A stretch of 64,000 nucleotides of DNA. It comes from Nanobdellota archaeon. GTDB lineage: Archaea; Nanobdellota; Nanobdellia; Woesearchaeales; JBHPFW01. The position numbers and the translations under genes were made by a program. The stretch spans positions 25,589 to 89,588 of the forward strand of contig JBHPFW010000001.1 in NCBI GenBank assembly GCA_042571645.1. Direction: 5' to 3'. Below the pieces are notes generated by a model. The model was not told where the DNA came from and made no database searches. It was given only the letters and a program-made list of their open reading frames with translations. This document shows, piece by piece, positions 5,262-49,879 of the stretch (the stretch's first letter is position 1; every line of letters starts with the position of its first letter).

Positions 5262-6578
5262 TTATGCAGCCTGATTGTCTCTATAAATCAAATTAAAAGG
5301 CACAACTGGTTTTTCTATCACTGTTCCTCGGTCAATAGGATTATTTTTATCCTTAGGAATAACTACCATGAAATATGGTTTTTCTCCAAAATAACTTGTG
5401 GCAAACGTCTGTCCGCCTAAGTTTTCAGTTATTCTTTGAACACCATACAACCCCATTCCGGAAGACATTGCTAATCTTTCATCAGCAAATCCGCTTAAGC
5501 CCTGAACAAAACATAAATTAGAAATATCTCCACCAGTTATTTTGTGTAAATACAGTGGATTTTCTTGATATTTCAGAAGTTTGTCTTTTAATTCATCAGA
5601 AATTCCTCTTAATTTTTTGCCTTTTTTTAACCATTCTCCTGCTTTTTTCAGCATTTGATCTATTGATATTCCTGCCGCATTATCTCCAACAGCCATATAA
5701 TAACCATCTGCTAATTCCCTTAATTCAATTGAAATTTGCGGTGTGTAATGTTCTGCTCTTCCAGAAGCTATATCCTTCTCAATCTTCTTTACCGCATTGT
5801 TTACAAAATTAGATAATACCCCAAAAAACATTCCTTCAGAACCTTTAGGCATTGAAGTAATTTGATTGTCGAGAATTATTTTTTCTGTTTCTAAAATGTC
5901 TTCTGGTCCGACAATTGGAAATAACCTTCCCCCACAAAGAAATCTTAACTGACCAGCTGATGCAACATCATTTCCTAATTGATACATATCAACCTCATCC
6001 AATAATAATCCGTCTACATGATATTCTACTATTAAGCTTTCAACAGCTGTTTTGGCAGGATAACTTAAGATCCTAGCTATTTGTTCTGTATCATTCAGTT
6101 TGTTTAATAAAGATTCTGTGGTTTCATTAAGTTCATGCTGATAAATGTTCAACAGAACATTAGCAATAGGTATGAGTATATGACCAATATCATGACCAAT
6201 ATCATACCTTTGCTCAAAATCGCCAAATAAAGGATTACTCATTGCCTTAAGCATAGTGGGACTATCTTCATCTTCTTCTCGAATATACATATGAGTATCA
6301 AAAAGTGGCTGCAAAGCAACCATACGCAAATAGTCACTAATCCCAGGACAACTATCATTGAAATGATTATTATAAATATTATAATAAAGATGATCTCTTA
6401 GTTCTAAAATGAACTTTTCTGTATCTTTTAATTCACCTGCCTTCCTTTTTTTCAATAGATCCATAACTGCTTCAACATTTAAACCCTGATAACCTTCAAG
6501 TTTTGGCACATAGTTCTGGATATAAGAATAAGCTGACCTGATTACTCGCTGAGCTCTCTCTATAGATAAATCTGTCAT
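5262..6578 (-). CDS. Soluble GHKL/histidine-kinase-like ATPase (atypical, no TM, no recognised sensor domain)
   Basis: H-box-like DIGHDIGHILIPI, N-box-like NFVNNAVKK, G1-like VGDNAAGI, G2-like SSGMGLYGVQRITENLGGQ. Confidence 0.6.
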   Translation of the reverse strand: MTDLSIERAQRVIRSAYSYIQNYVPKLEGYQGLNVEAVMDLLKKRKAGELKDTEKFILELRDHLYYNIYNNHFNDSCPGISDYLRMVALQPLFDTHMYIREEDEDSPTMLKAMSNPLFGDFEQRYDIGHDIGHILIPIANVLLNIYQHELNETTESLLNKLNDTEQIARILSYPAKTAVESLIVEYHVDGLLLDEVDMYQLGNDVASAGQLRFLCGGRLFPIVGPEDILETEKIILDNQITSMPKGSEGMFFGVLSNFVNNAVKKIEKDIASGRAEHYTPQISIELRELADGYYMAVGDNAAGISIDQMLKKAGEWLKKGKKLRGISDELKDKLLKYQENPLYLHKITGGDISNLCFVQGLSGFADERLAMSSGMGLYGVQRITENLGGQTFATSYFGEKPYFMVVIPKDKNNPIDRGTVIEKPVVPFNLIYRDNQAA

Positions 6579-12526: not shown

Positions 12527-13537
12527 TCATATAATTCTTGTTCCTTGGTCAGATACTCTTGTGATTATGCTAAAAGTCTCAATACCTCTGCAATTGAAGA
12601 CTTTTTCCATGCTCTTCTGTATATCTAATGCTATTTTAATGTCATTTGTAGCTGCAAAAACACTTGGTCCTGAACCGCTTATTGAAAAAGCTGATGCTCC
12701 AACATCTAATGCTGCTGTTTTAACTTCATTAAAGCCTGGAATTAACTTTGCTCTGAAAGGCTCAACAACATTATCAACCATGTTTTTTGCAGCAAGCTCG
12801 AAATTGTTATTTTTTATAGCGCTTATAAGATTCTGTAAATTTTCCTCATTTCTATTTTTATCTTCTTCTTTTATTTCATCCCATTTTATTATATCTCTGG
12901 CTTCCTCTGTTCTAATCTCAATATCTGGCTTTACTACAACAAAAATTAAGTCATTCACTATACCTAATTTATCAATACCTAATGGATTGCTGCTGGTTAT
13001 ATTTACAAAGCCCCCAAATAAACATGGTGCTAGATTGTCTGCGTGTTTTCCTGGTTCCAAATTGATCCCAATCTCCAGTAACTTTTCTTTGCTTAATTTA
13101 TTTCCGAAAAGTTCATTTGCTGCAACTAGTCCAGCACAGATACTAGCTGAACTACTGCCTAAACCAGAACCAACTGGCAGTCCCTTATGAAGAACTAACT
13201 CAACACCTTCGTCTATATTTAATTCATCCATTATTGCTTTTACTGCTATTGAAGCAAGATTTTCATTGGAATCTTCTGAAACTCTTCCTTTTTCTGCAAA
13301 TACTTTTAGTTTAATGGTTTTCTCGTGAAGTTTTCTTGCCTGCAGAATATCTCCTGGACCTTGTAAACAAGCACCCAATACATCAAATCCTGGCCCGCAA
13401 TTTCCTATTGTCGCAGGAGAAAACACAGTCACATACTCACTACCTGCATCATTGTCTTTTAAGATCAATTTTCTAAGATCAACTTTTTCTTCTGCAAAAT
13501 TCATTAATTCCATTTTATCATCAGTTCCTGGATTCAC
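12527..13537 (-). CDS. thrB: Homoserine kinase
   Basis: GHMP kinase motif GLPVGSGLGSSSAS, N-terminal PATIGNCGPGFDVLG. The GTG start overlaps the upstream stop (GTGA). Confidence 0.85.
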   Translation of the reverse strand: MNPGTDDKMELMNFAEEKVDLRKLILKDNDAGSEYVTVFSPATIGNCGPGFDVLGACLQGPGDILQARKLHEKTIKLKVFAEKGRVSEDSNENLASIAVKAIMDELNIDEGVELVLHKGLPVGSGLGSSSASICAGLVAANELFGNKLSKEKLLEIGINLEPGKHADNLAPCLFGGFVNITSSNPLGIDKLGIVNDLIFVVVKPDIEIRTEEARDIIKWDEIKEEDKNRNEENLQNLISAIKNNNFELAAKNMVDNVVEPFRAKLIPGFNEVKTAALDVGASAFSISGSGPSVFAATNDIKIALDIQKSMEKVFNCRGIETFSIITRVSDQGTRII

Positions 13538-18093: not shown

Positions 18094-18236
18094 TGAGCCC
18101 GAGAGGATTCGAACCCCTGACCTGCCGGTCCCTGGCCAGAGTTGCAATAGCAGACTCTTGAAGCCGGCCGTACTATTTGCCTTAAGGCAAACCCACAAAT
18201 CGCAGATTTGTTGTATCCAGACTATACTACGGGCCC
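18094..18236 (-). tRNA. tRNA with two introns (D-arm region about 41 nt; anticodon loop 28 nt). Best BHB fold gives tRNA-Arg(UCG)
   Basis: Read on the minus strand: acceptor GGGCCCG/CGGGCTC, D arm GTAT-AGTCTGG..TA-GTAC, anticodon stem GCCGG/CCGGC, variable AGGTC, T arm AGGGG-TTCGAAT-CCTCT, discriminator A. No encoded CCA. 143 nt = 74 + 41 + 28. Confidence 0.8.
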
Positions 18237-27375: not shown

Positions 27376-29955
27376 TTATTTCTTGTCTTTTTTACCTACA
27401 TCCAAATCAATTACTCTCCGGGTCGGGTCTGCATTATATCCTGATCTATTTAATTCAATTTCTCTAATTTCAGGCAAATCTCCCAATCTACCCATCCCCA
27501 TAGTATCTGGTAGAGGCGGTGGTTGAGATGTTTGTGTTTTAATTGCAGTTAAATTATACAATGCCTCCACCATGTTTCTTGTACCAGAAGTTGTTGATCT
27601 AACCCAAGAATCTCTATCAACCTTTTTATCAACAGTAAATTGAGCTGCATGAGAAACATTTCCTGTCACTACCAGATAAACTGTGCCTTCTGCTGCAGAA
27701 CTTAATTGAGATAACCTATTCTGACAACTATAACCAAAAACCTTCAAGTCCCCAATATTTAAATACTTCCCGAGTCTTTCCTGATAGTCAATTCCTTTTC
27801 TACCGCCAATGATAACTAGCCTGTTTAAATACGGTCTTGAATCTTCTGGTACTTCAATAGAATCCGGATCATATGCAAGAGGATAATCTGCTGGTTTATC
27901 AAAATCATCAGAAATTGCATTAATCTCATAAAAATATCTTATCAAAAGGTCCTTTTTTTCCTCTCTATCAGCAATATTGGATAATTGAACTAAAAAAGGC
28001 CAATAAAACATTTCTCCCTTAACTGACACATATCTTCTTCCCCTTACTAAATCTATGTCATCTCCAATATCAATATAGCCAGCTGAATTTCTGATAAGGT
28101 CCTCCTCCAATCTCCACAAATCTCTTCTTATTTGTATGAGATCTTTCAAATGATCAGAGACGAAACTAATATCTTCTTCTAGTAAAGTAATAAGATCCTG
28201 ATTAAAGGGATGTTCCTTTCTGACAGACATGCTCAATTTATTATAAATTTTATCATATTTTCCTTGGCGTTCAATTGATTCATAAATATCAATTATTTCT
28301 TCCATAGCTGCAAAATCTCGCTTAGCATAAATCTCACCAAGTTTAGGAAACATAGCTCTTAACTCATTTCCTCTCTTCAAATCTTCTCTTAGTTCTTGAG
28401 CAATATCAACATAAACTTCATGATTTTTTAGAAAGTCTACTAGAATAATTGCATTGTTGACATTATCTTTGAGCACCTCTGCTACAACAGGAATACGATT
28501 TTTCCCTTTACTAACTAAATAACTCAGGCGCCTATCACCATCTAAAGCCAACCACTCATTAATATTTCCCTCATCTATATATTTAGAAAGAGGCTGATCC
28601 TCGCCATAATAATAAGTTGACAAAAAGCCACATACTGTTTCTGGTTCCTCAAATGAACCAAACTCCTCTGAAAATCTCGCTCTAAGACTAAAGTCTGATT
28701 TATTCATCGAACTTAAAACAAATTGAGGATTAGGAGAATTTCTACCTCGCTTATATTTCTTGTGGAATTTCCCAAGTTCTTCATTTAATCCTATCTTTTT
28801 TTCAATTGTGCCAGAATATAATTCATAAACCTCTAAAAATGAAGCAATCTCATTTCCTATAATATGAGGAAGTAAAAATTGCTTCCTGTCCATATCAACG
28901 ACTATATTGATAATTCTTTCTAACTCAATAGTCTTAACATAAGTTGTTTGCAAATAATCTCTGATATCTTCTTGTTCAATTCCCCTATAAATATCTCTAG
29001 CATATTTTAAATTTTCAATTACATATCCCAATGCAAGATTTCTTAATAAATCCAAAGAAGATCTTTTTGTTTCAATTACTTTGGCCAAATAAGGAAATGC
29101 CTGAGCAAACTCATTTCGTTTTTCTTTAACTCCAACTCCTGGAAGAATCTCTTTGACTTCATCTTGCTGTTCTTTCATCCTATAAAATAAACTAATATCG
29201 TAATCAACTCGTATATCATCCAAAGAATCATTCCATTCAGAATTCCCTAATTCCGGATTTTTAAGCAGTGCTTCAAGAGATTTATGTGCAATCTGACTCT
29301 TTTTTGTTTGAGAATTAAATCGCTCTTGTAATTTCATTGGCTCTGGCAAGAAATACATCTTTTGCCTGAAAAAAGGCAAACTATCTAATAACTGAGTTAT
29401 GAATAAAAGATGTTTATTATATGTTTTTCCCCACCCATAAATATTTTTCCGATAATAAGATCTAGCTGAACCCCACTTTTTCATATATGTTGGTGAGCTA
29501 AACGGAAAACCAGCTATTGATTTAAACCTTGGAAAATTTTTAAGCATATACGGATCTTGTTTTATTTGATTTTCATAAAACAAAATTTTTCTTGTAGTGT
29601 CCATGTTAAGACAATTTGGACCATCTGAATGCAAATAAGCAGCCCACAAGAAATATTTAGACTCAAATGGCAAATCCAACTCATCAAGGAATGATGGGGG
29701 TTTATCTTCTACTATTAAGCCAGGATAATCAAAATAATCCATAAGTAAACAAATATCAACTAATGGGAAAAAATCATGAGACCCTGGAACAACATCAATA
29801 GCTCTTCTTTCTAAAGGATCAACATATTTAGTAGGCAAAGGCATGTAATCATACTTCATACGCGCTGAATTACTTTCTTTCCCTGGTTTCTTCTTTACCG
29901 TTTGTTTCTTCTTAGATCTTTTATTATTTTTATCACTAAAATATCTTTTCGCCAT
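27376..29955 (-). CDS. Large orphan protein (859 aa) with C-terminal DUF2325-like module
   Basis: Uninterrupted 2.58-kb ORF, ATG start, basic N-terminus. C-terminal RLVIIGGRKG...VYLVVTGNVSHAAQFTVDKK resembles DUF2325 (from memory). The rest is unrecognised. Confidence 0.7.
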   Translation of the reverse strand: MAKRYFSDKNNKRSKKKQTVKKKPGKESNSARMKYDYMPLPTKYVDPLERRAIDVVPGSHDFFPLVDICLLMDYFDYPGLIVEDKPPSFLDELDLPFESKYFLWAAYLHSDGPNCLNMDTTRKILFYENQIKQDPYMLKNFPRFKSIAGFPFSSPTYMKKWGSARSYYRKNIYGWGKTYNKHLLFITQLLDSLPFFRQKMYFLPEPMKLQERFNSQTKKSQIAHKSLEALLKNPELGNSEWNDSLDDIRVDYDISLFYRMKEQQDEVKEILPGVGVKEKRNEFAQAFPYLAKVIETKRSSLDLLRNLALGYVIENLKYARDIYRGIEQEDIRDYLQTTYVKTIELERIINIVVDMDRKQFLLPHIIGNEIASFLEVYELYSGTIEKKIGLNEELGKFHKKYKRGRNSPNPQFVLSSMNKSDFSLRARFSEEFGSFEEPETVCGFLSTYYYGEDQPLSKYIDEGNINEWLALDGDRRLSYLVSKGKNRIPVVAEVLKDNVNNAIILVDFLKNHEVYVDIAQELREDLKRGNELRAMFPKLGEIYAKRDFAAMEEIIDIYESIERQGKYDKIYNKLSMSVRKEHPFNQDLITLLEEDISFVSDHLKDLIQIRRDLWRLEEDLIRNSAGYIDIGDDIDLVRGRRYVSVKGEMFYWPFLVQLSNIADREEKKDLLIRYFYEINAISDDFDKPADYPLAYDPDSIEVPEDSRPYLNRLVIIGGRKGIDYQERLGKYLNIGDLKVFGYSCQNRLSQLSSAAEGTVYLVVTGNVSHAAQFTVDKKVDRDSWVRSTTSGTRNMVEALYNLTAIKTQTSQPPPLPDTMGMGRLGDLPEIREIELNRSGYNADPTRRVIDLDVGKKDKK

Positions 29956-36616: not shown

Positions 36617-36696
36617 AATTGGGCGCGTTCTCTCTCTTCTCTCACAGAATTCTTAGATGAAAAGGTCCTTTATAAAGGTAGTGGTTTTTTAGTTTG

Positions 36697-36736
36697 CACT
36701 GGACATTTATGCCAAACAGATTTTTATACCATTTCT
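36697..36736 (+). promoter_or_regulatory. Copy 3 of the CACTGGACATTTA...TTTA(A/T)ACCA(A/T)TTCT promoter-like repeat
   Basis: CACTGGACATTTATGCCAAACAGATTTTTATACCATTTCT. The first 13 nt are identical to copies at 41811 and 41978. The distal part contains a TATA-like TTTTTATA. Confidence 0.45.
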
Positions 36737-36798
36737 CAATACCAATAATAAACAAAACCAAAAGATTTATATATAATTATATCATATAAACTTATATA

Positions 36799-37092
36799 AT
36801 GATTAAAAAACCCAAAATGTCATCAAAACAAGAACTGAAAATATTACATCAACCAAGATTAGACACAATTATGATGATAGAAGAAACAATAAAAGAACAT
36901 GGCGGAGAACTCGGTAAATTCCAGATGTGGAGAAAACTTCCTAAGGCAGTTATGTATCAAACATATTTAACAGTTCTTGATTATTTGGAGTATTCTAATA
37001 AAATAGCTTTTGACAAAAAAGGTAAAGTAGGATGGATATTTAGTCCAAATATCTATAAAAAATTCAAGAGTAATTCAAAACTTAAAAGATAA
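36799..37092 (+). CDS. Small putative winged-helix protein (97 aa)
   Basis: Helix-turn-helix-wing-like pattern (TIMMIEETIKEHGGELGKFQMWRKLPKAVMYQTYLTVLDYLEYSNKIAFDKKGKVGWI). Fold assignment is by eye only. Confidence 0.45.
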   Translation: MIKKPKMSSKQELKILHQPRLDTIMMIEETIKEHGGELGKFQMWRKLPKAVMYQTYLTVLDYLEYSNKIAFDKKGKVGWIFSPNIYKKFKSNSKLKR

Positions 37093-37212
37093 TCTGATTA
37101 TTTAAATACTGATTTAAATATGGCTTTTAAACTACTCATTTTTCTTGATAAACTTTAAATAACCTACCAAAAACCCGCTTTAGGACCCTTATAGTGCTTG
37201 AGGTTGGGTAAT

Positions 37213-40200
37213 ATGAGCTTAGATGAGAAAGTAAAAAAAGAAGGAAAATATTATGTTGGACTTGATGTAGGGTCTGATTCTGTTCATGCAATTGTATTAG
37301 ATAAAGATGGCAAAGTTGTTTTTAATCCTAAATCTTTAATGCACTTTGGAAATCCAGTTGATACAGTAAAAGAAGCTTATGAAATAATTATAGAAGAAGT
37401 AGGAAAAGAAAATATTGCTGCAACTGCTTTTACAGGTTCTGTTGGAGAAACAATAGCAAGAAACACTAGCACATCTTTTTATTACGATACAATTTCTATT
37501 CCAGCAGGTGTAGAAGTTATTGCGCCAGAAGCTGAATACATAATTCATATCGGTTCAAAAGATCCGTATTTTTTTGAAAGAGAAAGATTAAAAACACAAC
37601 AAATTTCATCTGAAGCAGATATGCCTTCATCTTTTGTATCAGATAGTCAAACTGGCACAAAATGTGGTGGCGGTTCTGGAATTCTAATTAATAAACAGGT
37701 AAGAAGATTTTTTGGAAAAGAACACCCAATTAATATAGAAGTTTCAGCTTCTGAAGAAAACAGACAGGAAACACAAAAAGAAAATAGGGACAGATTACAA
37801 GCACAAGTAGAGAAAATACATGAAACTGCTTTAAATGCAATAACTAGTTCTGAAAAAGACATTGATGTCGGGGGGAGATGTGGTGTTGTAATACACTCCG
37901 ATATGATTCATCTTCAGAATTCAGGGGAAGGAATTCCCGATATATTAAGGGGGATGTATGAAAGGATTGTTAGTAATTATGTTACTGATGTTATAAGGAC
38001 AAGAAAACTTGATGGAACTAAAAATGCAATTGTAAGTGGCGGTGTTTTTCTAAATAATTATGTGTTTGATTCTATTGAAAGACAACTAGATATTAATATA
38101 AAACGGCCAGATAATTTTGAGAAAATAGGTGCAGCAGGAGCTGCACTAAATGCATTAAGAGAAAACATACAAACAAAACTTAACTTTGATAGTTTAGAGA
38201 ATGTTATTGAAGCTCAAAAAGCAGAAATAAGATTTGCTGATCCGATATCATCTGCATTGCATAGAGTCCATGATTATTCAGATGAACCAATACTCGAAGA
38301 AACAGAAAATGGATTAATAATTTACAAAACTCTTGATGCTAGCCAAAAAAAATCTGTTGTTATTGGAATGGATGGCGGTTCAACAACCACTAAAGCTTTA
38401 ATTGCAGACGCGGATAATCTTGATATACTTGCAGAGATCTGTTTGGATACAAATGGCAAGCCTTTAGAAACCGCCCAAGAAGTTTTCAGAGAAATAAGAG
38501 AGTATATTGGAGACAGAATAAACATAAAGGGGATTGCTTATACTGGAAGTTCAGGAGCATTCTATAATAGATTATTTACTGACAATACTAAAAACCCCGA
38601 GCTTGCTAGTACTGATATGACAGTAGATGAAATAACTTGTCATGCTCGCGGTGTCAAGCATTATAACTCCCAGGTCGATACAATATTTGAATGTGGCGGC
38701 CAAGATGCTAAGTATACAAGATTTAATGCAGATGGAACAGTAAGTAAAGCAAAAATGAACCTTAGCTGCATGGCTGGCACAGGACAATCAATGAAAAACA
38801 TACTCGATATGGTCGGGCTTGATTTCAAAACATTTGAAGAACTTGCATTAAAAGCAGAAAGAACTCCCATTACAGATGAAACTTGTGCTATTTTTACAGA
38901 AGCTGGAATTCTAAAGTTGGTTGCATTAGGTCTTCCAAGAGAAGAGATTGCGGCTGCAATTGCTTATGGATTTATGGGTGGTTATGCAAACAAATTTGTT
39001 GGTAATGAAACATTTGGAGAATATGCATCTGCACAAGGAGGGCCGTTTAAGAGTAAGGCAAATTTAGCTGCTTTAGCTTTGCATACAGAAACAGAGGTTC
39101 ATGCATTTCCTCACAGACAATTATTTGGAGCTTTCGGTGCTGCAATTTCAGTTTATAACGAGATAGAAGCAATGGAAGCAAAAGGTATTGAGTTCAGATC
39201 CAAGTTTAAAGGATTGGATATAGCTGATATGTATTTTGAGAAAAAAACTGAAAGTTGTAGTGATATGCTTGAAGAAAACAGTTGTGGTAAAAAAGATTGT
39301 AGTTTAGGAACATATACCCTTGGTGAAGACACAATATTTTCAGGAGGCGCATGCCCAAAAGGAAATACTGATACAGTTACAAAAAAGGCACCAAATTATA
39401 CTGAAATTTATAAGAGATTACTTGATAAAGAATTAAAAAAAATCGGAGTTAAATCAATAGATGATATATTAGATGGTGATGGAAAAGTTATTGAATCAGG
39501 TAAACCAAGAATATTTATCCCGAGAAGTTTGACATTCTTGAATGAAAAAGGAGTATTTTATGCAAAATTATATTCTTCTTTAGGCTTTGATGTGGTTGTT
39601 TCTCCTGAATCAAATGATGAAATAGCAAATTTAGGAATAACTAATTCCCATACAGAATCATGCTATCCTGCAAAACTAGCAAATGGTCATGCAACTTTTC
39701 TTTCTAAATATTTAAGAGAAGAAAAAGATGGAAAAGCAAAAGACAAGCTATTACTTGTTAATGCAATTAGTGTTGGAGAAGAAAAAAGGAAATTCTGTCC
39801 TTATGTTGCCGCATCAGGATTTGTTGCTAAAGGAGCCTTAAATCTTTCTGATGATGAAGTCTTACTTCCAGTACTGCATTTTGATGATCCAAATTATAAG
39901 ATAGATGATGCTATCTATAAAGACATAGCAAGAGCATTTGGTAAAGAAAAATTCAGAAAAGAAGATATTGCAAGTGCTGTAAATATTGCTGAACAGGAAC
40001 AAAATGAATTCTTAGATGGAATTTATACTAAAGGAGAGAGATTTATAGAAGCTATAAAGAAAAGAGGGGAGAAAATCTTTTTAGGAGTTGGGAGAGGTTA
40101 TACTGTTTTGGATAATAAAGCAAATTCAAATGTTCATGATTTGTTTGCATCTTATGGTATGCATTTTATTCCTGCATTCTTTTTGAGAACTCCTGATGTA

Positions 40201-41802
40201 GATCTTGATAAGATAGCACTAAATATGTATTGGTTCCAGGGACAAAATATGATAAAACAGGAAGTGGGTGTTACTCAAGATAAAGATATATACGCAGTAA
40301 GACTAACAAACTTTAACTGCGGCACAGATGGTATGTTACTATATCACGAAGGAAGAATAATGGATGTAGCAGAAATGCCCTTTTTGATTCTGCAAACAGA
40401 TGGCCATAATAGTAATGCTCAATTTGGAACAAGGATACAAGCTCATAGAGAGGTTGTAAAAACTCATACTCCTAGAGAGGTGCATATAGATGAGCTCCTG
40501 ATTGAAAAACCAGAAGCAAAAGATCTTGACAATAGGACTATAGGCGTCCCTAGTATGGGAGATGAGAATGCAAACTTACTAGTGGCTGTTCTAAAATCAC
40601 TTGGATATAAAGCAGAAGCTATTCCTTCAGGAACTGAAGCTGCAAGTCATTGCGCAAAAAAAGTCTTAACAACAAACAATTGTCAGCCATTTACTTTTGT
40701 AACAGGAGAAACTCTTTCATGGATTAATAATATGGAAGAACTAGGTTATGATCCAAATAAAGATTTAGCTATACTTTTACCTGATGCAATGGGCCCGTGC
40801 AGATTTGGGCAGTATAGTGTCATTATGAGAATGTTTTATGATCAAGCTGGATTTAAAGAACTCCCTGTTCTTTCTCCTTCTGCTCAGAATGATTATGCAG
40901 ACATGCCTATACCAAAAAAACAAATACGTCTTATGACAAAAACATTCTATAAATCCCTTATAGCTTATGATATATTGCATAATACTCTGCTTAGAACTAG
41001 GCCTTATGAAACAAAGTCTGGCCAGACAGATCATGTTTATAACGCATTACAAGAAAGATTTTTAGAAATCGTGGAGAAGGGGTGTAATACAAAACAACTT
41101 CAGAGATTCATGCAGGAAGCCAGTGATAAATTTCAATCAATTCCAATAACAGATGATGAAAGAAAGCCAAGAGTGGATATGCTGGGAGAGATTTTTGTGA
41201 GATGCCAACCAAAATCAAATCAATATTCTGTAAGAACATTAGAAGAAAATGGTTTAGAAGTTTATACTCCTTCAGTAGCTGAGTGGGTTGATTATATAAA
41301 TCGGAATTCTATAAGAAAATTCTGGAAGGATAAAAGATATGGTGAAATGGTTAAATCAATTATTAAAGGGGCTTATGGTCATCATATAAGAAGAAAATTA
41401 GTCAAACCATTTGAAAACTATTTAGATGGCAGAATAGCTCATAATCCTCTTGAACTCATAGATGAGTGTCAAGAACGTTTGATATATCATCAAGCAATTG
41501 AAGGAGAATCACCTATATCAATAGCAGAAGCCTATCACTTTATGACAGGAAATTCAAATGGAGATGTTCCAATATGTGGAATCTATGAAGTTGGACCATT
41601 TGGTTGTATGCAGGAAACAGTAGCAGCTGCTATGATTCAATCATTGATCCATAAAACAAGAAGGTCTGAAGATCACCCAGGAAAAAGGGTTATCCCTTAT
41701 ATGCATGCAGTATTTGGAGATTCTGAATCATCTAATCTACATCCAGAGATTGCTGCTTTTGCAAAAAGCTGCGATGCAAGAAAAAAACTAACTAAGAGTT
41801 GA
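37213..41802 (+). CDS. Giant fusion: two BadF/BadG/BcrA/BcrD(HgdC)-type ATPase modules plus DUF2229 (CoA-enzyme-activase domain) plus HgdB/D-component-like domain
   Basis: Module 1: YYVGLDVGSDSVHA, TKCGGGSG. Module 2: VVIGMDGGSTTTKALIA, ITCHARGV, FECGGQDAKY, CMAGTGQS, AQGGPFKS. DUF2229: IFIPRSLTFLNEKGVFY, ESCYPAKLANGHATFL. C-terminus: IGVPSMGDENANLL, NNCQPF, GPCRFGQY. Stops TGA TAA. The ATG at 37213 has GAGGT upstream. Confidence 0.85.
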   Translation: MSLDEKVKKEGKYYVGLDVGSDSVHAIVLDKDGKVVFNPKSLMHFGNPVDTVKEAYEIIIEEVGKENIAATAFTGSVGETIARNTSTSFYYDTISIPAGVEVIAPEAEYIIHIGSKDPYFFERERLKTQQISSEADMPSSFVSDSQTGTKCGGGSGILINKQVRRFFGKEHPINIEVSASEENRQETQKENRDRLQAQVEKIHETALNAITSSEKDIDVGGRCGVVIHSDMIHLQNSGEGIPDILRGMYERIVSNYVTDVIRTRKLDGTKNAIVSGGVFLNNYVFDSIERQLDINIKRPDNFEKIGAAGAALNALRENIQTKLNFDSLENVIEAQKAEIRFADPISSALHRVHDYSDEPILEETENGLIIYKTLDASQKKSVVIGMDGGSTTTKALIADADNLDILAEICLDTNGKPLETAQEVFREIREYIGDRINIKGIAYTGSSGAFYNRLFTDNTKNPELASTDMTVDEITCHARGVKHYNSQVDTIFECGGQDAKYTRFNADGTVSKAKMNLSCMAGTGQSMKNILDMVGLDFKTFEELALKAERTPITDETCAIFTEAGILKLVALGLPREEIAAAIAYGFMGGYANKFVGNETFGEYASAQGGPFKSKANLAALALHTETEVHAFPHRQLFGAFGAAISVYNEIEAMEAKGIEFRSKFKGLDIADMYFEKKTESCSDMLEENSCGKKDCSLGTYTLGEDTIFSGGACPKGNTDTVTKKAPNYTEIYKRLLDKELKKIGVKSIDDILDGDGKVIESGKPRIFIPRSLTFLNEKGVFYAKLYSSLGFDVVVSPESNDEIANLGITNSHTESCYPAKLANGHATFLSKYLREEKDGKAKDKLLLVNAISVGEEKRKFCPYVAASGFVAKGALNLSDDEVLLPVLHFDDPNYKIDDAIYKDIARAFGKEKFRKEDIASAVNIAEQEQNEFLDGIYTKGERFIEAIKKRGEKIFLGVGRGYTVLDNKANSNVHDLFASYGMHFIPAFFLRTPDVDLDKIALNMYWFQGQNMIKQEVGVTQDKDIYAVRLTNFNCGTDGMLLYHEGRIMDVAEMPFLILQTDGHNSNAQFGTRIQAHREVVKTHTPREVHIDELLIEKPEAKDLDNRTIGVPSMGDENANLLVAVLKSLGYKAEAIPSGTEAASHCAKKVLTTNNCQPFTFVTGETLSWINNMEELGYDPNKDLAILLPDAMGPCRFGQYSVIMRMFYDQAGFKELPVLSPSAQNDYADMPIPKKQIRLMTKTFYKSLIAYDILHNTLLRTRPYETKSGQTDHVYNALQERFLEIVEKGCNTKQLQRFMQEASDKFQSIPITDDERKPRVDMLGEIFVRCQPKSNQYSVRTLEENGLEVYTPSVAEWVDYINRNSIRKFWKDKRYGEMVKSIIKGAYGHHIRRKLVKPFENYLDGRIAHNPLELIDECQERLIYHQAIEGESPISIAEAYHFMTGNSNGDVPICGIYEVGPFGCMQETVAAAMIQSLIHKTRRSEDHPGKRVIPYMHAVFGDSESSNLHPEIAAFAKSCDARKKLTKS

Positions 41803-41806
41803 TAAC

Positions 41807-41903
41807 AAACCCACTGGACACAATTTTCGCAAAAAGCGAAAATGTGCATTTTCAGCTGTGCTGAAAATTGCATTTACGGTACAAGAGTATTTAAATCAAT
41901 TCT
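41807..41903 (+). promoter_or_regulatory. Copy 1 of the promoter-like repeat, interrupted by a 51-nt palindromic insert
   Basis: AAACCCACTGGAC[51-nt insert]ATTTACGGTACAAGAGTATTTAAATCAATTCT, against the uninterrupted copy 2. Confidence 0.55.
41821..41871. repeat. 51-nt insert with 8-bp terminal inverted repeats and two internal hairpins
   Basis: Termini CAATTTTC...GAAAATTG. Hairpins ATTTTCGC-AAAAA-GCGAAAAT and GCATTTTCAGC-TGT-GCTGAAAATTGC. Lies about 20 nt after the stop of the giant gene. Confidence 0.55.
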
Positions 41904-41971
41904 GGCTTACGACTAATATGAAACCCTCGTAAATAAAATAATTTAGGCAGCTAGCACCAAGATCTAATCCT

Positions 41972-42016
41972 AAACCCACTGGACATTTACGGTGCAAGAG
42001 TATTTAAACCAATTCT
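41972..42016 (+). promoter_or_regulatory. Copy 2 of the promoter-like repeat; likely promoter of the DUF4186 gene
   Basis: AAACCCACTGGACATTTACGGTGCAAGAGTATTTAAACCAATTCT. The TATA-like TATTTAAA centre is about 30 nt upstream of the ATG at 42035, which suggests a leaderless or near-leaderless mRNA. Confidence 0.55.
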
Positions 42017-42034
42017 AACTACCCTTTATTCACA

Positions 42035-42481
42035 ATGTGGACTCAATTAATGCATCATGACAATCTGGCTAAGACAAAAACAAGCCATTTCAGGAGAAAA
42101 TTCCATCTTAATGAAGCAGAAAAGAAGTATATTGCAGATAAAGGCTTAGACCACCTGAGAAAACAGGCAGAATTTGTGATCTCTACAAAAATACTTCATC
42201 CTCTAGCTAATGATGGATATCAAACACCTTATTATGGACATCCAATATTCAAAGCTCAGCATGCAACTGCAACTTGCTGTAGAAATTGCATTAGAAAATG
42301 GTGGAGATTCCCCTCAAATAGATCTTTAAACAAAACAGAGTTTAGTTTTATTGTAAATTTAATAATGAAATGGGTGAAAAAAGAAATGGAAAAGTATGAA
42401 GACTCCTCAAAAACAAAGCAACAAAGAATTACAACCTTGTCGGATTATCACACAGAGGAACAAAGAAAAGCAACTACATAA
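42035..42481 (+). CDS. DUF4186-family protein
   Basis: NDGYQTPYYGHPIFKAQHATATCCRNCIRKWW matches the remembered DUF4186 core (DGkQTP..GHPvF.AQHATAtCCR.Cl.KWH). Confidence 0.7.
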   Translation: MWTQLMHHDNLAKTKTSHFRRKFHLNEAEKKYIADKGLDHLRKQAEFVISTKILHPLANDGYQTPYYGHPIFKAQHATATCCRNCIRKWWRFPSNRSLNKTEFSFIVNLIMKWVKKEMEKYEDSSKTKQQRITTLSDYHTEEQRKATT

Positions 42482-43415: not shown

Positions 43416-44108
43416 TTAATTCAAAAACTCTTGTTCTATTAATGAACGTATTGCTTCTAAATTAGCTCCTGGAATTGGTTTTCCATTAACCATAAATGTT
43501 GGTGTTCCCTGAACACCTCTGGAAATACCTTCATTTAAATCTGCCAGAACAATATCCTTTTTTTCTCTTGAATCAAGGCATTTGTCAAACTGTTGTCTAT
43601 CCAACCCTACAGAGTCTGCATATCTCTTCAAATTGTTTCTGCTAAGATCATATTGGTTCGCAAACAGCATGTCATGCATCTCCCAGAATTTTGCTTGATC
43701 TCTGGCGCATTCAGTTGCCTCTGCTGCCAATTGAGCATCAGGATGCATTTGCGATAAAGGGAAATGCTTGAAAACAACATTTATATCGTCACCATAAATT
43801 TGAAGAAGCTGTTTTACAATAGCATGGCCATTCTTACAAAAAGGACATTGAAAATCAGAGAACTCTTCAACTAGCACACTTGCATCAGGATTAGTCCCTC
43901 TTTCTAAAGCTCCTTCTCCACTGACCAAAGAATCATAATCCGCAGTCGGCATAGTTGGTAACTTTATTTCCTGCTTAGGTGTTGGGAAAATTTTATCAAT
44001 ATTAACCATTACAATTCCCAAAAGCACTATTAGCACCAAAGCACCAGCTGCAAAGATTCTGTCTTTAGTGACAAATTTCTTTGTAGAAACCCCTTTTTTC
44101 TTTTTCAT
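43416..44108 (-). CDS. Membrane-anchored DsbA-like thiol:disulfide oxidoreductase
   Basis: N-terminal TM (IFAAGALVLIVLLGIVMV), CPFC active site (FSDFQCPFCKNGH), GTPTFMVNGK cis-Pro loop region. Confidence 0.8.
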   Translation of the reverse strand: MKKKKGVSTKKFVTKDRIFAAGALVLIVLLGIVMVNIDKIFPTPKQEIKLPTMPTADYDSLVSGEGALERGTNPDASVLVEEFSDFQCPFCKNGHAIVKQLLQIYGDDINVVFKHFPLSQMHPDAQLAAEATECARDQAKFWEMHDMLFANQYDLSRNNLKRYADSVGLDRQQFDKCLDSREKKDIVLADLNEGISRGVQGTPTFMVNGKPIPGANLEAIRSLIEQEFLN

Positions 44109-44146
44109 TTTTGATTAAGTAAAAAGTTAAAAAAAAAATTAAAAAA

Positions 44147-45232
44147 TTAAGCTCCGCAGGCTGCAGCAATGTCTGTATCTCCTGAACTGCCGAGACCAAA
44201 TCCTGGTGAAGGACTAGCTGAAGGAACTTCTTCATTGCATTCTTCTGGCTGTTCATTGAAACTATTGCAGATTCCTGCTAAATAACTTGATGGAGATCTT
44301 CCTGCATTAGACTGAACACCATTAATGATCAATGATGGAGATCCTTGTACCCCGTACTTATCATTCAAATCCTTATGTACATTAAACTGAGGGTATCTTC
44401 CTCCAGACCATGTGGATTTGTCTCCGAAAAGCTCTGTAACCTTAAATTCCTCATCAGTTGCTTTTACACAGGCCTGTAGTTTATCTTCATCAATGCCAAC
44501 TTTTTCTCTACAAGCAATTGACTCTTCATCCGTGCCTGAAGTTCCTGACAAGAAGCAGAATAAGAAGTCATTATACTTTTCAGGTTGTTCTTCCTGAACA
44601 CAGTAATGCACTAACTGCTCATCTAATTCTCTTTTTCCATGCATTGCATAATCAACAAACTTGATGCTGAAATCGATCTTATCACCTAAAAGTTTTGCTA
44701 CGGGCAACATTCCTTTTTCTGCCTGAGTACCAAATGGACAGTGTGTCATCACAAACAGCTCAACTACTGGTTTGTCTGATTTTGGGACATCTGCTGGAGC
44801 TTGCTGAGCTTCTGCAGGTTGTTCTGGTGGCTCAACTGGCTCATTCAAATCTATTCCTTGAGGAAATAAGAATTTGCCGTCTTTTGTTATATATGATGTG
44901 AATGTCTGACCATTAACCTCAAGTTCTGCTTTATACAATTCTCCTTCCTCTGTAATACTTTTAATTGAAGCAGAATTACCTGGCTGCAACAAATTTGTGT
45001 TGACATAATCAACTACTTTATTCTTTGCATCTTCAGAAGATAATTCTTTTTCTGTTAATGAAGAAAAACCATCTGTAAATATTGATACTGCAAGCAAGAT
45101 TACTGCGATAATCGCAATAATTGCCCATGAATGAGCAGAAATGCCATGACACCCCTTTTTAGGTTTCTTATGGCTGTGTTCAGCATGCTTATGATGTTCT
45201 TTACTATGCGATGTGTGTTCGTGTTTTGTCAA
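44147..45232 (-). CDS. Membrane-anchored DsbA/thioredoxin-fold protein with His-rich cytoplasmic tail and single-Cys CPFG site
   Basis: TKHEHTSHSKEHHKHAEHSHKK tail, TM (WAIIAIIAVILLAVSIF), FVMTHCPFGTQAE, GSPSLIINGV. TTG start with GGGGGTG SD-like upstream. Confidence 0.65.
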   Translation of the reverse strand: MTKHEHTSHSKEHHKHAEHSHKKPKKGCHGISAHSWAIIAIIAVILLAVSIFTDGFSSLTEKELSSEDAKNKVVDYVNTNLLQPGNSASIKSITEEGELYKAELEVNGQTFTSYITKDGKFLFPQGIDLNEPVEPPEQPAEAQQAPADVPKSDKPVVELFVMTHCPFGTQAEKGMLPVAKLLGDKIDFSIKFVDYAMHGKRELDEQLVHYCVQEEQPEKYNDFLFCFLSGTSGTDEESIACREKVGIDEDKLQACVKATDEEFKVTELFGDKSTWSGGRYPQFNVHKDLNDKYGVQGSPSLIINGVQSNAGRSPSSYLAGICNSFNEQPEECNEEVPSASPSPGFGLGSSGDTDIAAACGA

Positions 45233-47113: not shown

Positions 47114-48067
47114 ATGTCAAAAGAAAATGAACTAAAAACATTAATCATTGAAAACTTTGGCCAAGCAGCATTGCAGCTTCCCGACATATATGAAAAAGGA
47201 TGGACATTTCCTTTGGCAGAAGATAATTTAGAAGAAGCAGCAGAGATTCTTGTTGATTTTGCAAAATCAGATGTTGTTGATGAATTACCTCCACTTGTAC
47301 ATAGAATCTCACGAACCTTTGAGGATTTAAAAGAGTCTTATACAGGTAGAGATAATGTTTATTTTGCATCTGGCATGTTTGGACACGAATTAGGAAATAT
47401 ACTTGGAATTATTGTTCCATCCGCTTATAACATTATTAAAGGCGGGAAACCTTTCTTAGATGAACCAGGAAGAATTGATAAATTCTTAGCAAGTTTAACA
47501 ACTGATAGAGTGATTTCTTTGGGAATATGTTATCTTGCTTCATCTGGAGATGAACAATTTCTTGCAAAAGTTCCTCTTACTCAATTACAATATGTGTTTA
47601 TGTTATATGCATTTGAGCCTAGTGGAAGGAAAACAGCAAAAGTATTCCCAACACCATCTGAAGATATTTTTAGTCCAGAATATTTAGCACTCTATCATAT
47701 AGCTAGAAATGCCCCAACAGATTATGATATTAGAGCAGAAGAAGATGGAGATAATCTAAAAATAAGTTTACAAGATTATGGAAAAGGCATCCTAGACAAA
47801 AACGAAAAACCTCTTCCTCCAGAAAGATTTCATGAAATATTTGGGGAGTTCTCGACGACGGGCGGAGGATTAGGACTTCAAATAGCTAAAGCATTAATAG
47901 ATTTACGAGGAGGATATATTGAAGTTATAACAAAAACAAAAGACAATCCGGCATTTGCATACAGAACTGATACAAAACAAGATTACCTCTATACAGGTCC
48001 GCTTCAACCTAAAATAACTTCAACAGGAACTATCTTTGTTCTTAATGTCCCTAAAGAAATCACATAA
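47114..48067 (+). CDS. Soluble histidine-kinase-like ATPase (paralog A)
   Basis: H-box-like MFGHELGNILGII, N-box LYHIARNA, G1 LQDYGKGI, G2 TTGGGLGLQIAKALIDLRGG. Confidence 0.65.
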   Translation: MSKENELKTLIIENFGQAALQLPDIYEKGWTFPLAEDNLEEAAEILVDFAKSDVVDELPPLVHRISRTFEDLKESYTGRDNVYFASGMFGHELGNILGIIVPSAYNIIKGGKPFLDEPGRIDKFLASLTTDRVISLGICYLASSGDEQFLAKVPLTQLQYVFMLYAFEPSGRKTAKVFPTPSEDIFSPEYLALYHIARNAPTDYDIRAEEDGDNLKISLQDYGKGILDKNEKPLPPERFHEIFGEFSTTGGGLGLQIAKALIDLRGGYIEVITKTKDNPAFAYRTDTKQDYLYTGPLQPKITSTGTIFVLNVPKEIT

Positions 48068-48076
48068 CAATAAAAA

Positions 48077-49879
48077 ATGTCACTAAAAAAACTACTCACA
48101 GGTGTTGATAAAGGACTAGTTGAAAAACTAGAAGCCATTAACAGCAGAATAGCAAAAAAAGATAAAGATTCGAGTAAAGCTTTTTTGGGAGCACTACCTG
48201 GTTTTGTTAAAGATTCTGTTGAACATGAGTTAACAGATTATATTGAAAGATTTGTGTCTTTAGGAGAAAAAATAATAGATCAACAAAAAGATCATGCACC
48301 AAATTACTTTGGCAGTCTGCATGGAATCGTATTCGGATTCATACTTAATAAAGTCACAGATCATTTAGACGCAAGTTTTGATTTGTGTGAAAAAATATCA
48401 GACATTGCACAAAAACCTGCTTATGCTGGAAACTTAATGTTTCATTTACCTCAACCACTCAGAACATTCAAAGATTATGATCTTGATCAATATGTAAAAG
48501 ATGCATTTGAATTAGCAGGAAACCTCGCTCTCACAAGGGACGGAACAGATATAACTTTTCCATTTCTAGAAAAATCAGCTAAGGTAGTAAAAACATTTCA
48601 TAAAAATAATTTAACACAACATCTGGCTGGAATTTATGATGCGGTTGGTAAAATTGCTCAGAAAAAAACAAAAATGGCTTTAAATTTCTTTGATGAGTCT
48701 GCCTATTTGATTAAGACCGGGATTGAAAAAGGCTTGAGTAAAGAACAACTAGAAAATGATGTAAAAGAATTTGCGAGATTTGGCCAAAAATTAGGAGAAC
48801 AAAACATTCCTGACATGAACTATTTTTTGGAAGAAAATGTTGCAGAAAAGTTAAACGCATATTCATTGGTTAGACTTCAAGGATTTCTAGAAGGATATAT
48901 GTCTGCGAGCTGCTCTAATTATTCGCCTGCACAAGAAGCGGAAGAGCTCATGCCTCTTCTAAAAGAACTAAAAATCCAAGGAACCAAGAAACTCGTGACT
49001 CATGAAATTGGATATGTAGCCAAAAAATTACCAAATCCATTTGAAAAAGGCCAAACATTTCCATTAAACGACAAAGACCTCCAAGAAGTAGTAGAAAATA
49101 TAGATGAAACAAGTGCAGCACTATCTGAAATGATAAAAATCAGCAGATATATTGGTACAGCTAAACATGAATATTCAGAACCAGACCAAATAAAGCTGTG
49201 CTCAAGAATATTTGGACATGATCTAAACAATGCTCTTAACTCACCAGTTTGCGCATATAACACAATCCTACTTAAAGATAAAGAATACAAAGAAATTTCT
49301 GGAGAAATTAATACTTATTTAAGAAATCTTCTCGAACTAAGAATCATGGGTCTATCCACAGCATATATTGCTTCGGAGGGTAATGAAGAATTTCTAATGC
49401 AAATTCCAAATGATCAAATAGAATATGCTATTCCTTCTGATAAAAAACAATCAGATTACAGATTAAAAGAGCTAAAAACTGTTGAGGGCCACATATTAAA
49501 TCCTGAATGTCAAGCTTTATATCAACTAGTGAAAAATGCCAAAGGAGATTACACTATCGATATTCAAGAAGATAAAGATAACACAATAATAACTTATCAA
49601 GATAACGGTCCTGGAATTCTTGACGAGGAAGGGAATCCACTTCAAGCAGATAGACTTCATGAAATATTTGGAAGTTTCTCAACTACAGGCGGAGGATTAG
49701 GACTTCAAATAGCAAAAGCACTAATAGAATTAAGAGGTGGCTGGATTGATGTTATGACTAAAACAAAAGGAAATTCTCCTATTCATTATAATACAGAAAC
49801 AGGTGTTGACTCAACTTATGGCGGAGATCTAAAAAAAGGAACTATGTTTGTTATGCATGTGCCAAAAGAAATATTATAA
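48077..49879 (+). CDS. Soluble histidine-kinase-like ATPase (paralog B) with about 300-aa unique helical N-terminal extension
   Basis: The C-terminal 290 aa are collinear with 47114-48067 (IFGHDLNNALNS, LYQLVKNA, YQDNGPGI, TTGGGLGLQIAKALIELRGG). The DNA around the G2 box is near-identical between the two genes. Confidence 0.65.
   Translation: MSLKKLLTGVDKGLVEKLEAINSRIAKKDKDSSKAFLGALPGFVKDSVEHELTDYIERFVSLGEKIIDQQKDHAPNYFGSLHGIVFGFILNKVTDHLDASFDLCEKISDIAQKPAYAGNLMFHLPQPLRTFKDYDLDQYVKDAFELAGNLALTRDGTDITFPFLEKSAKVVKTFHKNNLTQHLAGIYDAVGKIAQKKTKMALNFFDESAYLIKTGIEKGLSKEQLENDVKEFARFGQKLGEQNIPDMNYFLEENVAEKLNAYSLVRLQGFLEGYMSASCSNYSPAQEAEELMPLLKELKIQGTKKLVTHEIGYVAKKLPNPFEKGQTFPLNDKDLQEVVENIDETSAALSEMIKISRYIGTAKHEYSEPDQIKLCSRIFGHDLNNALNSPVCAYNTILLKDKEYKEISGEINTYLRNLLELRIMGLSTAYIASEGNEEFLMQIPNDQIEYAIPSDKKQSDYRLKELKTVEGHILNPECQALYQLVKNAKGDYTIDIQEDKDNTIITYQDNGPGILDEEGNPLQADRLHEIFGSFSTTGGGLGLQIAKALIELRGGWIDVMTKTKGNSPIHYNTETGVDSTYGGDLKKGTMFVMHVPKEIL

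Follow-up and report, generated by a model that had tools for sequence, protein, structure and literature searches.

What is a 1529-residue protein of a mainly bacterial reductase family doing among the housekeeping genes of a DPANN archaeon? The question is raised by a stretch of 64,000 nucleotides (hereafter the window, in whose numbering positions are given) from a Nanobdellota archaeon of the order Woesearchaeales (assembly GCA_042571645.1, contig JBHPFW010000001.1, positions 25,589 to 89,588 of the forward strand). An initial annotation, made from the sequence alone, placed the protein in the superfamily of benzoyl-CoA reductases (BCR) and 2-hydroxyacyl-CoA dehydratases (HAD), as a relative of the plasmalogen synthase PlsA/PlsR within a mainly bacterial family. 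This placement is borne out by Pfam and NCBIfam, by homolog searches and by fold matches. The gene can be regarded with high confidence as real, intact and conserved, and as a member of the PlsA/Ger family in a DPANN genome of the Woesearchaeota type. Moreover, its product is probably a functional single-chain PlsA/Ger enzyme, that is, an ATP-dependent, oxygen-sensitive Fe-S reductase of membrane-lipid esters.

A complete gene for a fused multidomain protein

The reading frame is uninterrupted from 37198 to 41802 on the forward strand and, from the ATG at 37213, encodes 1529 amino acids followed by a stop codon (Table 1). A GAGGT motif (37200-37204) is located 8 nt 5' of this ATG. The translation is 100% identical, over the same length, to the NCBI protein P0001, named 'BadF/BadG/BcrA/BcrD ATPase family protein [Nanoarchaeota archaeon]' and encoded on a 109-kb contig of a metagenome-assembled genome. 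As initially stated, the open reading frame (ORF) is the largest in the window, the runner-up having 859 codons, and the motifs first noticed in it (GLDVGSDS, TKCGGGSG, GMDGGSTTTK, ECGGQDAKY, CMAGTGQS, CYPAKLANGH) are all found in the translation.

The proposed succession of two HgdC-type ATPases, a DUF2229 domain and a C-terminal half resembling the HAD/BCR core is upheld by Pfam, NCBIfam and fold matches. When the whole protein is searched, Pfam recovers BcrAD_BadFG (PF01869) in two stretches, the better one at residues 384-645 (2.3e-35), and the NCBIfam model TIGR00241 (CoA_E_activ, acyl-CoA dehydratase activase) exceeds its cut-off. The second, canonical module finds by sequence the Protein Data Bank (PDB) entries of MbdQ (9gai_D, 3e-17), HadI (4eht, 4e-17), HgdC (1hux, 2e-15) and DCCP-R (7yyl_E, 2.6e-15), the reductase of the double-cubane cluster protein (DCCP). 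In the first module, GLDVGSDSVH is found, with GSDSVH where the canonical GSTxxK (GSTTTK) is expected, and the two cluster cysteines are separated by a stretch carrying a charged insertion of ~45 amino acids. Aligned to one another by hhalign, the two modules give a probability of 97% (E 3e-11).

The ATPases are followed by a linker with four cysteines and then by the core. In the AlphaFold2 model the linker region has a predicted local distance difference test score (pLDDT) of 50-77, too low to define its geometry. Located between ATPases and core, the linker may add a further Fe-S or Zn site to the protein. The core itself begins with the DUF2229 half, for which the Pfam match (PF09989, residues 767-987) reaches 1.5e-34 and 120 bits (cut-off 29.4). 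For the C-terminal half, searched alone, Pfam gives nothing at E ≤ 10, and neither phmmer nor the family profile finds a matching PDB sequence. Thus, of the families anticipated by the initial annotation, BcrAD_BadFG and DUF2229 were recovered, but HGD-D (PF06050) was not, with either the whole protein or the isolated C-terminal half, at E ≤ 10.

Structure prediction proved more informative on this half. The AlphaFold2 models, built on an alignment of 58 sequences, have a pLDDT of 91 and a predicted template modelling score of 0.89 for residues 670-1529, and a pLDDT of 91.9 for residues 1086-1529. With the whole core model, the leading Foldseek matches are BzdNO and HadC. With the C-terminal half, only four confident matches are obtained, HadB (3o3m_C), DCCP (7yyl_B), BzdNO (8s02_B) and MbdON (9g87_A), with probabilities of at least 0.99, template modelling (TM) scores of 0.35-0.47 and 8-11% identity, the next match having a probability of 0.16. 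These models point to the catalytic-subunit fold of HAD, BCR and DCCP for the C-terminal half, an assignment confirmed only at fold level. The D-component-like domain that had been proposed at the C-terminus is therefore retained as a fold recognized by AlphaFold and Foldseek, but not as a sequence match to HGD-D, to another Pfam family or to a PDB entry. Within the core, hhalign aligns the DUF2229 half with the C-terminal half at 86% probability (E 5.5e-6) and places C817 opposite C1157. The two halves are detectably homologous, and the core therefore appears to be a fused pseudo-heterodimer comparable to the alpha and beta subunits of HAD.

Fourteen cysteines, four in the ATPase pair, four in the linker and three in each half of the core (Table 1), do not vary in any of 115 close homologs, nor in 85 full-length representatives that are more distant (24-38% identity). 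Their conservation suggests that they bind cofactors, with the cysteines of the paired ATPases presumably placed on a bridging [4Fe-4S] cluster. This cofactor map, with its 4+4+3+3 pattern, extends published reports, as does the recognition of the unannotated C-terminal half as a duplicated core domain of the HAD/BCR type.

Table 1. Coordinates of the gene, its domains and neighbouring elements, and genomic contexts of selected homologs
Feature	Position	Strand	Description	Evidence
Fused PlsA/Ger-family gene	37213..41802	+	Complete	ORF list, translation, GAGGT, NCBI identity
ATPase module 1	37234..38217	+	Residues ~8-335, divergent; invariant C151, C223	BcrAD_BadFG 1.6e-11 on N-terminus searched alone
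ATPase module 2	38362..39147	+	Residues 384-645, canonical, HgdC/HadI-like; invariant C519, C558	Pfam 2.3e-35, TIGR00241
Four-cysteine linker	39256..39354	+	C682-x8-C691-x4-C696-x17-C714	Invariant in 115 close and 85 distant homologs
DUF2229 half of core	39511..40467	+	To residue ~1085; invariant C817, C862, C1036	PF09989, model pLDDT >90
C-terminal half of core	40468..41799	+	Residues 1086-1529 (444 residues), PlsR-equivalent; invariant C1157, C1196, C1465	Foldseek, hhalign, phmmer
97-aa ORF	36799..37092	+	Between exosome operon and 1529-aa gene	Family search: no match
DUF4186 gene	42035..42481	+	Downstream of 1529-aa gene	PF13811 3.4e-36
Element copy A	36696..36737	+	CACTGGACATTTA ... TTTTTATACCATTTCT; upstream of 97-aa ORF and 1529-aa gene	
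Element copy B	41811..41903	+	Split: CCACTGGACA at 41811-41820, remainder 41871-41903; 50-nt twin-hairpin insert between	
Element copy C	41976..42016	+	TTTAAA box ~30 nt before ATG of DUF4186 gene	
Twin hairpins	41823..41868	+	Just past stop codon (41823-41843, 41848-41868); terminator-like site	Fold z = -3.2, unique in window
Homolog P0006			Bacterial context	MurJ, LepA, DivIC, RF1, FtsX
Homolog P0007			Bacterial context	TonB
Homolog P0021			Bacterial context	CheB, CheR
Homolog P0027			Bacterial context	Sigma-70, HU
Homologs P0014, P0019, P0076			Archaeal context	Archaeal housekeeping genes

Family assignment and probable reaction

The initial annotation left the substrate as unknown. This appears too cautious, as the fused layout is that of PlsA/Ger, and the tested members of this family convert the sn-1 acyl ester of glycerolipids, by reduction, into a vinyl or alkyl ether (PMC13159169, PMC12838417). 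Ger (glycerol ester reductase, also described as 'modified PlsA') from both T. maritima and D. alkenivorans directed the formation of 1-O-alkyl glycerol ethers in anaerobic Escherichia coli, and both proteins have the domain order of the 1529-residue protein (PMC13159169). Plasmalogens are made by the PlsA that a single gene encodes in E. faecalis, L. cremoris and B. longum, and by the two-gene PlsA-PlsR of C. perfringens (PMC12838417), this anaerobic plasmalogen synthase being encoded by one or two genes according to species (PMC12838417, PMC9702350). Kinship to these tested enzymes was judged by their published domain layouts. In an exhaustive phmmer search, the C-terminal half of the query retrieved 1357 cluster representatives at E ≤ 1e-3, including fused proteins of 1350-1560 amino acids, stand-alone proteins of PlsR size (400-460 amino acids) and D+R proteins of 800-860 amino acids. 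By extrapolation from the family, a lipid ester can be proposed with moderate confidence as the substrate class.

By analogy with the BCR/HAD paradigm, and with proposals summarised in PMC8788747, the following mechanism can be envisaged. With C151/C223 and C519/C558, the tandem ASKHA ATPase modules would together hold a single bridging [4Fe-4S] cluster. ATP hydrolysis would push a low-potential electron into the core, possibly via the four-cysteine linker. In the core, made up of the DUF2229 half and the PlsR-like half, the three invariant cysteines of each half would hold a [4Fe-4S] cluster with one open iron. There, reduction of the carbonyl of the sn-1 acyl ester of a glycerolipid would pass by a ketyl-type intermediate, and dehydration would give a vinyl ether, which enzymes of the Ger type would further reduce to a saturated alkyl ether. 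In the DPANN host, fatty-acyl ester lipids would have to serve as substrate, with a bacterial partner as their most plausible source, and the gene would have reached the DPANN lineages by old inter-domain transfers and been retained since.

As to the product, we lean toward an alkyl ether of the Ger type because both ATPase modules are detected and because the bacterial clade-mates are Desulfobacteraceae and Spirochaetes. Detection of two activase domains has been found to correlate with alkyl-ether producers, and Ger and PlsA are at present inseparable by primary sequence (PMC13274423). The alternative, a strict plasmalogen synthase of the fused PlsA-PlsR type that halts at the vinyl ether and yields alk-1'-enyl lipids instead of saturated alkyl ethers, is in our opinion unlikely. 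It would agree with the domain order, which is that of the single-gene PlsA found in facultative anaerobes, an enzyme in which AlphaFold3 models likewise place two domains for activation and two for reduction (PMC12838417), and with the correspondence of the C-terminal half to PlsR, stand-alone relatives of PlsR size being on record. The two Pfam-detectable activase modules argue against it, as do the named clade-mates, since known plasmalogen producers cluster in Firmicutes and Actinobacteria (PMC9702350), although neither argument is decisive.

Less likely still is an ATP-driven reductase or dehydratase of the BCR/HAD/DCCP type whose substrate is not a lipid but, for instance, an aromatic CoA ester, a 2-hydroxyacyl-CoA or some small molecule, in the manner of double-cubane cluster proteins. 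In structure the core is indeed nearest to HadBC, BzdNO, MbdON and DCCP, the ATPase is nearest in sequence to MbdQ, HadI and HgdC, the subfamily of the query is uncharacterised and a glutamate dehydrogenase gene is located 3.7 kb downstream. However, the structural likeness is remote, as seen from the TM scores and identities given above, and the protein lacks a PF06050 match. All the NCBIfam equivalogs of benzoyl-CoA reductase (BcrA/BcrD/BzdQ) are also far under their cut-offs (62.9 vs 312.85, 57.7 vs 578 and 54.4 vs 380.2 bits). Moreover, the window holds no CoA-transferase, 2-hydroxyacid dehydrogenase, acyl-CoA dehydrogenase or ferredoxin partner, and the fused layout with its invariant four-cysteine linker is common to the entire family of PlsA/Ger length.

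Several observations nevertheless weigh against a lipid-ester reductase. Among the 120 best relatives, whether of the query or of its Desulfatiferula clade-mate, no named match is from Desulfatibacillum or Thermotoga, the majority of the matches bearing no name. The subfamily of ~1470-1530 residues to which the query belongs (Woesearchaeota, Spirochaetes, Desulfobacteraceae) is thus one for which no link to a validated enzyme was found. A relative from the Brocadiia, a group flagged in the literature, is just 32% identical across the C-terminal half. The isoprenoid lipids of archaea offer no ester for reduction, no fatty-acid or glycerolipid gene occurs within the window, and the gene neighbourhoods, which differ between DPANN lineages, carry no lipid signal. 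Finally, at E ≤ 10 the query shows none of the small PF06050 fragments that have been reported for T. maritima and D. alkenivorans Ger, where they lie in the C-terminal part; in the validated enzymes these fragments belong to BBDHDDH and BBDHDHDH architectures, in a region that the authors call variable (PMC13159169).

Distribution among archaea and bacteria

The best matches of the query are Woesearchaeota proteins from metagenome-assembled genomes (MAGs), at 61%. Those that come next, at 45-58%, are a mixed set of Woesearchaeota, Spirochaetes and Desulfobacteraceae (Desulfatiferula, Desulfoluna), and a second tier, at 36-39%, contains Phycisphaerae and another Nanoarchaeota MAG. Both archaeal and bacterial homologs are accompanied by genes typical of their domain (Table 1). 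In neighbour-joining trees on corrected p-distances, a crude method, the query and P0002-P0004 form one group (74% bootstrap), another Woesearchaeal clade stands elsewhere with 100% support and a split Pacearchaeota copy branches apart again; archaeal monophyly was recovered in 0 of 100 bootstrap replicates. The Woesearchaeal P0002 is nearer to P0004 (69% identity) and to the bacterial P0006 (64%) than to the query (62%). P0004 is probably bacterial itself, given a Peptidase_C10 gene at its locus and a partial cluster member labelled WOR-3 bacterium.

The contig of P0004, a protein 58% identical to the query, also shows a split-type trio immediately upstream of the fused gene (L009, 2782-10429). 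This trio is composed of a DUF2229/HGD-D protein of 317 residues, an HGD-D/DUF2229 protein of 369 residues and a single BcrAD_BadFG protein of 331 residues; two BCR/HAD-type systems therefore lie side by side at this locus.

In the Pacearchaeota genome DPANNHV_H1.bin.39 (L005, 7992-12393), the homolog is split into two overlapping ORFs, one of 613 residues with the two ATPases and one of 855 residues with the four-cysteine linker, the DUF2229 half and the C-terminal half, so that the split point differs from the one that separates PlsA from PlsR in C. perfringens. Downstream of it are a gene of the phospholipase D superfamily and a form III RuBisCO gene. The former was considered as a possible link to lipids and was not counted, as its best NCBIfam matches are of the nuclease or DrmC type and below cut-offs.

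The gene is thus retained in several DPANN lineages. Its GC content is 0.343, against a mean of 0.342 for the genes of the window, and its codon-usage distance is the lowest among the 49 genes of the window, a low value to which gene length contributes. The comparison with flanking genes suggested by the initial annotation hence gives a native composition. In one Woesearchaeal lineage, P0014 and P0019 (72% identity) keep the order Trm1-gene-EF1beta-(aS21)-RTC (L007 6938-12733, L008 6937-12732). The homolog is there embedded among translation genes, a setting comparable to that of the query beside the exosome operon. Because of this conserved synteny and of the native composition, transfer must be regarded as old and not recent. 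The horizontal acquisition initially proposed is therefore supported in that the DPANN copies are polyphyletic among bacterial ones, but not as a recent event. We conclude that several old inter-domain transfers took place and were followed by vertical retention; that the DPANN copies stem from such transfers, and not from one recent insertion, goes beyond published reports.

A repeated element around the gene

The gene had been described as bracketed by a private repeat. The 13-mer CACTGGACATTTA is indeed exact on both sides, at 36697 and 41977 (expected 0.06), but it is part of an element of ~41 nt which occurs in three direct copies and ends in a TATA-like box followed by CCAWTTCT. This promoter-like appearance does not fit the boundary of an inserted element. 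Copies B and C stand in tandem, 165 nt apart, between the 1529-aa gene and the DUF4186 gene (41811-42016). After the TATA-like box of copy B, only a 4-codon ORF is found. The 50-nt insert that splits this copy has 8-nt terminal inverted ends (CAATTTTC...GAAAATTG) and may be a terminator or else a very small insertion; the twin hairpins within it are probably the terminator of the 1529-aa gene. The simplest reading of the element is that of a shared regulatory or promoter element and, given the common upstream element, co-regulation of the DUF4186 gene and the 1529-aa gene is possible.

A role of the repeat as a mobile-element boundary was rejected in view of the direct, promoter-like copies, their TATA boxes in register and the native composition. 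Although the exact 13-nt direct repeat flanks a segment with the small ORF and the gene, and although neighbourhoods vary among genomes, it is highly improbable that the gene belongs to a recent mobile island bounded by the repeat, perhaps decaying or irrelevant to the host, as GC content and codon usage are native, one of the three copies of the element precedes an unrelated gene, the 14 family-invariant cysteines are all intact and no integrase, transposase, tRNA target or inverted terminal repeats bound the gene.

Gene neighbourhood

The archaeal setting beside a core exosome operon, noted from the start, is confirmed by Pfam, with the 97-aa ORF intervening. Immediately upstream, the minus strand encodes Rpp14/Pop5, proteasome alpha, SBDS, Rrp4, Rrp41, Rrp42 and Rpb6/RpoK; NucS, an ATP-dependent DNA ligase and an archaeal-type prolyl-tRNA synthetase are found elsewhere in the window. 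Besides this operon and the small ORF, the regions flanking the gene encode the DUF4186 protein, a membrane protein and DsbA-like proteins. By tblastn, neither the 97-aa ORF nor the DUF4186 gene has a counterpart beside homologs at eight other loci, and Rfam and tRNA scans of the gene flanks gave nothing related to the 1529-aa gene.

Other features of the window may be mentioned. The two neighbouring thioredoxin/DsbA-like proteins downstream (43416-45232, minus strand) are secreted or membrane-anchored; the second one (361 residues) has no Pfam match, but shows CPFG and DsbA-like motifs and a His-rich N-terminus. Three proteins (5262-6578, minus strand; 47114-48067 and 48077-49879, plus strand) have a C-terminal HATPase_c match only, with no recognisable HisKA or sensor domain, and the adjacent two have near-identical C-terminal segments (…FGxFSTTGGGLGLQIAKALIxLRGG…). 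The 859-aa ORF, second largest of the window (27376-29955, minus strand), has no Pfam match at E ≤ 0.01. A tRNA gene spanning 143 nt (18094-18236, minus strand) is detected by Rfam over the full model (38.9 bits, positions 1-71) and not by ARAGORN in bacterial mode; it is probably an intron-containing archaeal tRNA.

The window is also unusually biosynthetic for DPANN, with proline-pathway genes (glutamate 5-kinase-PUA, 1-pyrroline-5-carboxylate reductase, aldehyde dehydrogenase). A GHMP kinase gene (12527-13537, minus strand) adjoins an arginase-family gene, and a pyridoxal phosphate-dependent enzyme is encoded nearby. This kinase was considered as a mevalonate kinase and turned out to be a homoserine kinase (NF002288, 284 bits vs cut-off 194).

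Lipid context

Bacterial membranes are built of fatty-acid esters and archaeal ones of isoprenoid ethers; this lipid divide and the origin of DPANN membranes are open questions. The initial annotation spoke of an archaeon with ether lipids. This was an assumption, as no lipid-synthesis gene is present in the window and DPANN are generally held to lack such genes (PMC11868695). Homologs of Ger have already been listed in Ca. Woesearchaeota, Pacearchaeota, Methanosarcinales, Methanomicrobiales and Asgard archaea, those of Woesearchaeota and Pacearchaeota having been retrieved with T. maritima Ger as a query at E ≤ 1e-50 (Sahonero-Canavesi et al., 2022, PMC13159169). In 2025, matches to Ger, Mss and ElbD were reported in Woesearchaeia MAGs from the Black Sea, and the idea that such archaea remodel lipids taken from bacteria has been voiced (PMC11868695). 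Hence, the occurrence of such genes in DPANN of the Woesearchaeota type is previously recorded, and neither the observation nor its most attractive reading is new.

According to that reading, a DPANN archaeon unable to make lipids would use Ger to etherify bacterial ester phospholipids that it scavenges, the gene having been captured repeatedly and independently for this lifestyle. We consider this possible, though rather doubtful. If true, bacterial fatty-acyl lipids would serve to build an 'archaeal-style' ether membrane. The subfamily common to Woesearchaeota, Spirochaetes and Desulfobacteraceae is a place where the idea of lipid scavenging could be examined. A putative ester-to-ether enzyme located among housekeeping genes and kept in several DPANN lineages would give a handle on the lipid divide and on the membranes of DPANN.

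Comparison with known systems

With the 2-hydroxyacyl-CoA dehydratases (HadBC with HadI, 3o3m/4eht; HgdAB with HgdC, 1hux), the query shares an ATPase cluster bridged by two cysteines per module and a core of two homologous halves with a three-cysteine cluster site each; these enzymes are also among its best fold matches. In contrast to them, the query is one chain, has a tandem ATPase instead of a homodimer and an extra four-cysteine linker, and has no PF06050 match, with only 8-11% identity and TM scores of ~0.4-0.5. HAD substrates are CoA thioesters and, unlike in the gene clusters of these dehydratases, no CoA-transferase or 2-hydroxyacid dehydrogenase gene adjoins the query gene.

Class I benzoyl-CoA reductases (BzdNOPQ, 8s02; MbdONQP, 9gai/9g87) have two different ATPase subunits holding one cluster, reminiscent of the unequal modules of the query, and a core of related fold. 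They are made of separate subunits, whereas the query is fused, scores under the equivalog cut-offs and has no aromatic-degradation genes nearby. As for DCCP with DCCP-R (7yyl), both parts have counterparts in the query, the ATPase matching 7yyl_E (2.6e-15) and the core 7yyl_B (probability 1.0). However, DCCP holds one [8Fe-9S] cluster in a single chain of ~420 residues, whereas the query has two homologous halves with three invariant cysteines each, as in HAD.

The closest likenesses are found within the PlsA/Ger family. The PlsA-PlsR system (C. perfringens CPE1194/1195, Q8XL48/Q8XL47; E. faecalis PlsA, Q835P9; PMC12838417, PMC9702350) has the same order Act1, Act2, Red1, Red2; the C-terminal half of the query corresponds to PlsR and the cysteines for [4Fe-4S] clusters are conserved, and the query would be expected to be oxygen-sensitive. 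It differs in being fused where the C. perfringens system is split, and its own sequence neighbours are Desulfobacteraceae, Spirochaetes and DPANN. Compared with Ger (T. maritima Tmari_0479/AGL49404, D. alkenivorans SHJ90043; PMC13159169), the query lacks detected PF06050 fragments and is hosted by a DPANN archaeon in which no ester-lipid pathway is visible. Like Ger, however, it is a single chain with two BcrAD_BadFG domains, a DUF2229 domain and a further reductase/dehydratase-like part, and in both cases the protein is tied to anaerobic life.

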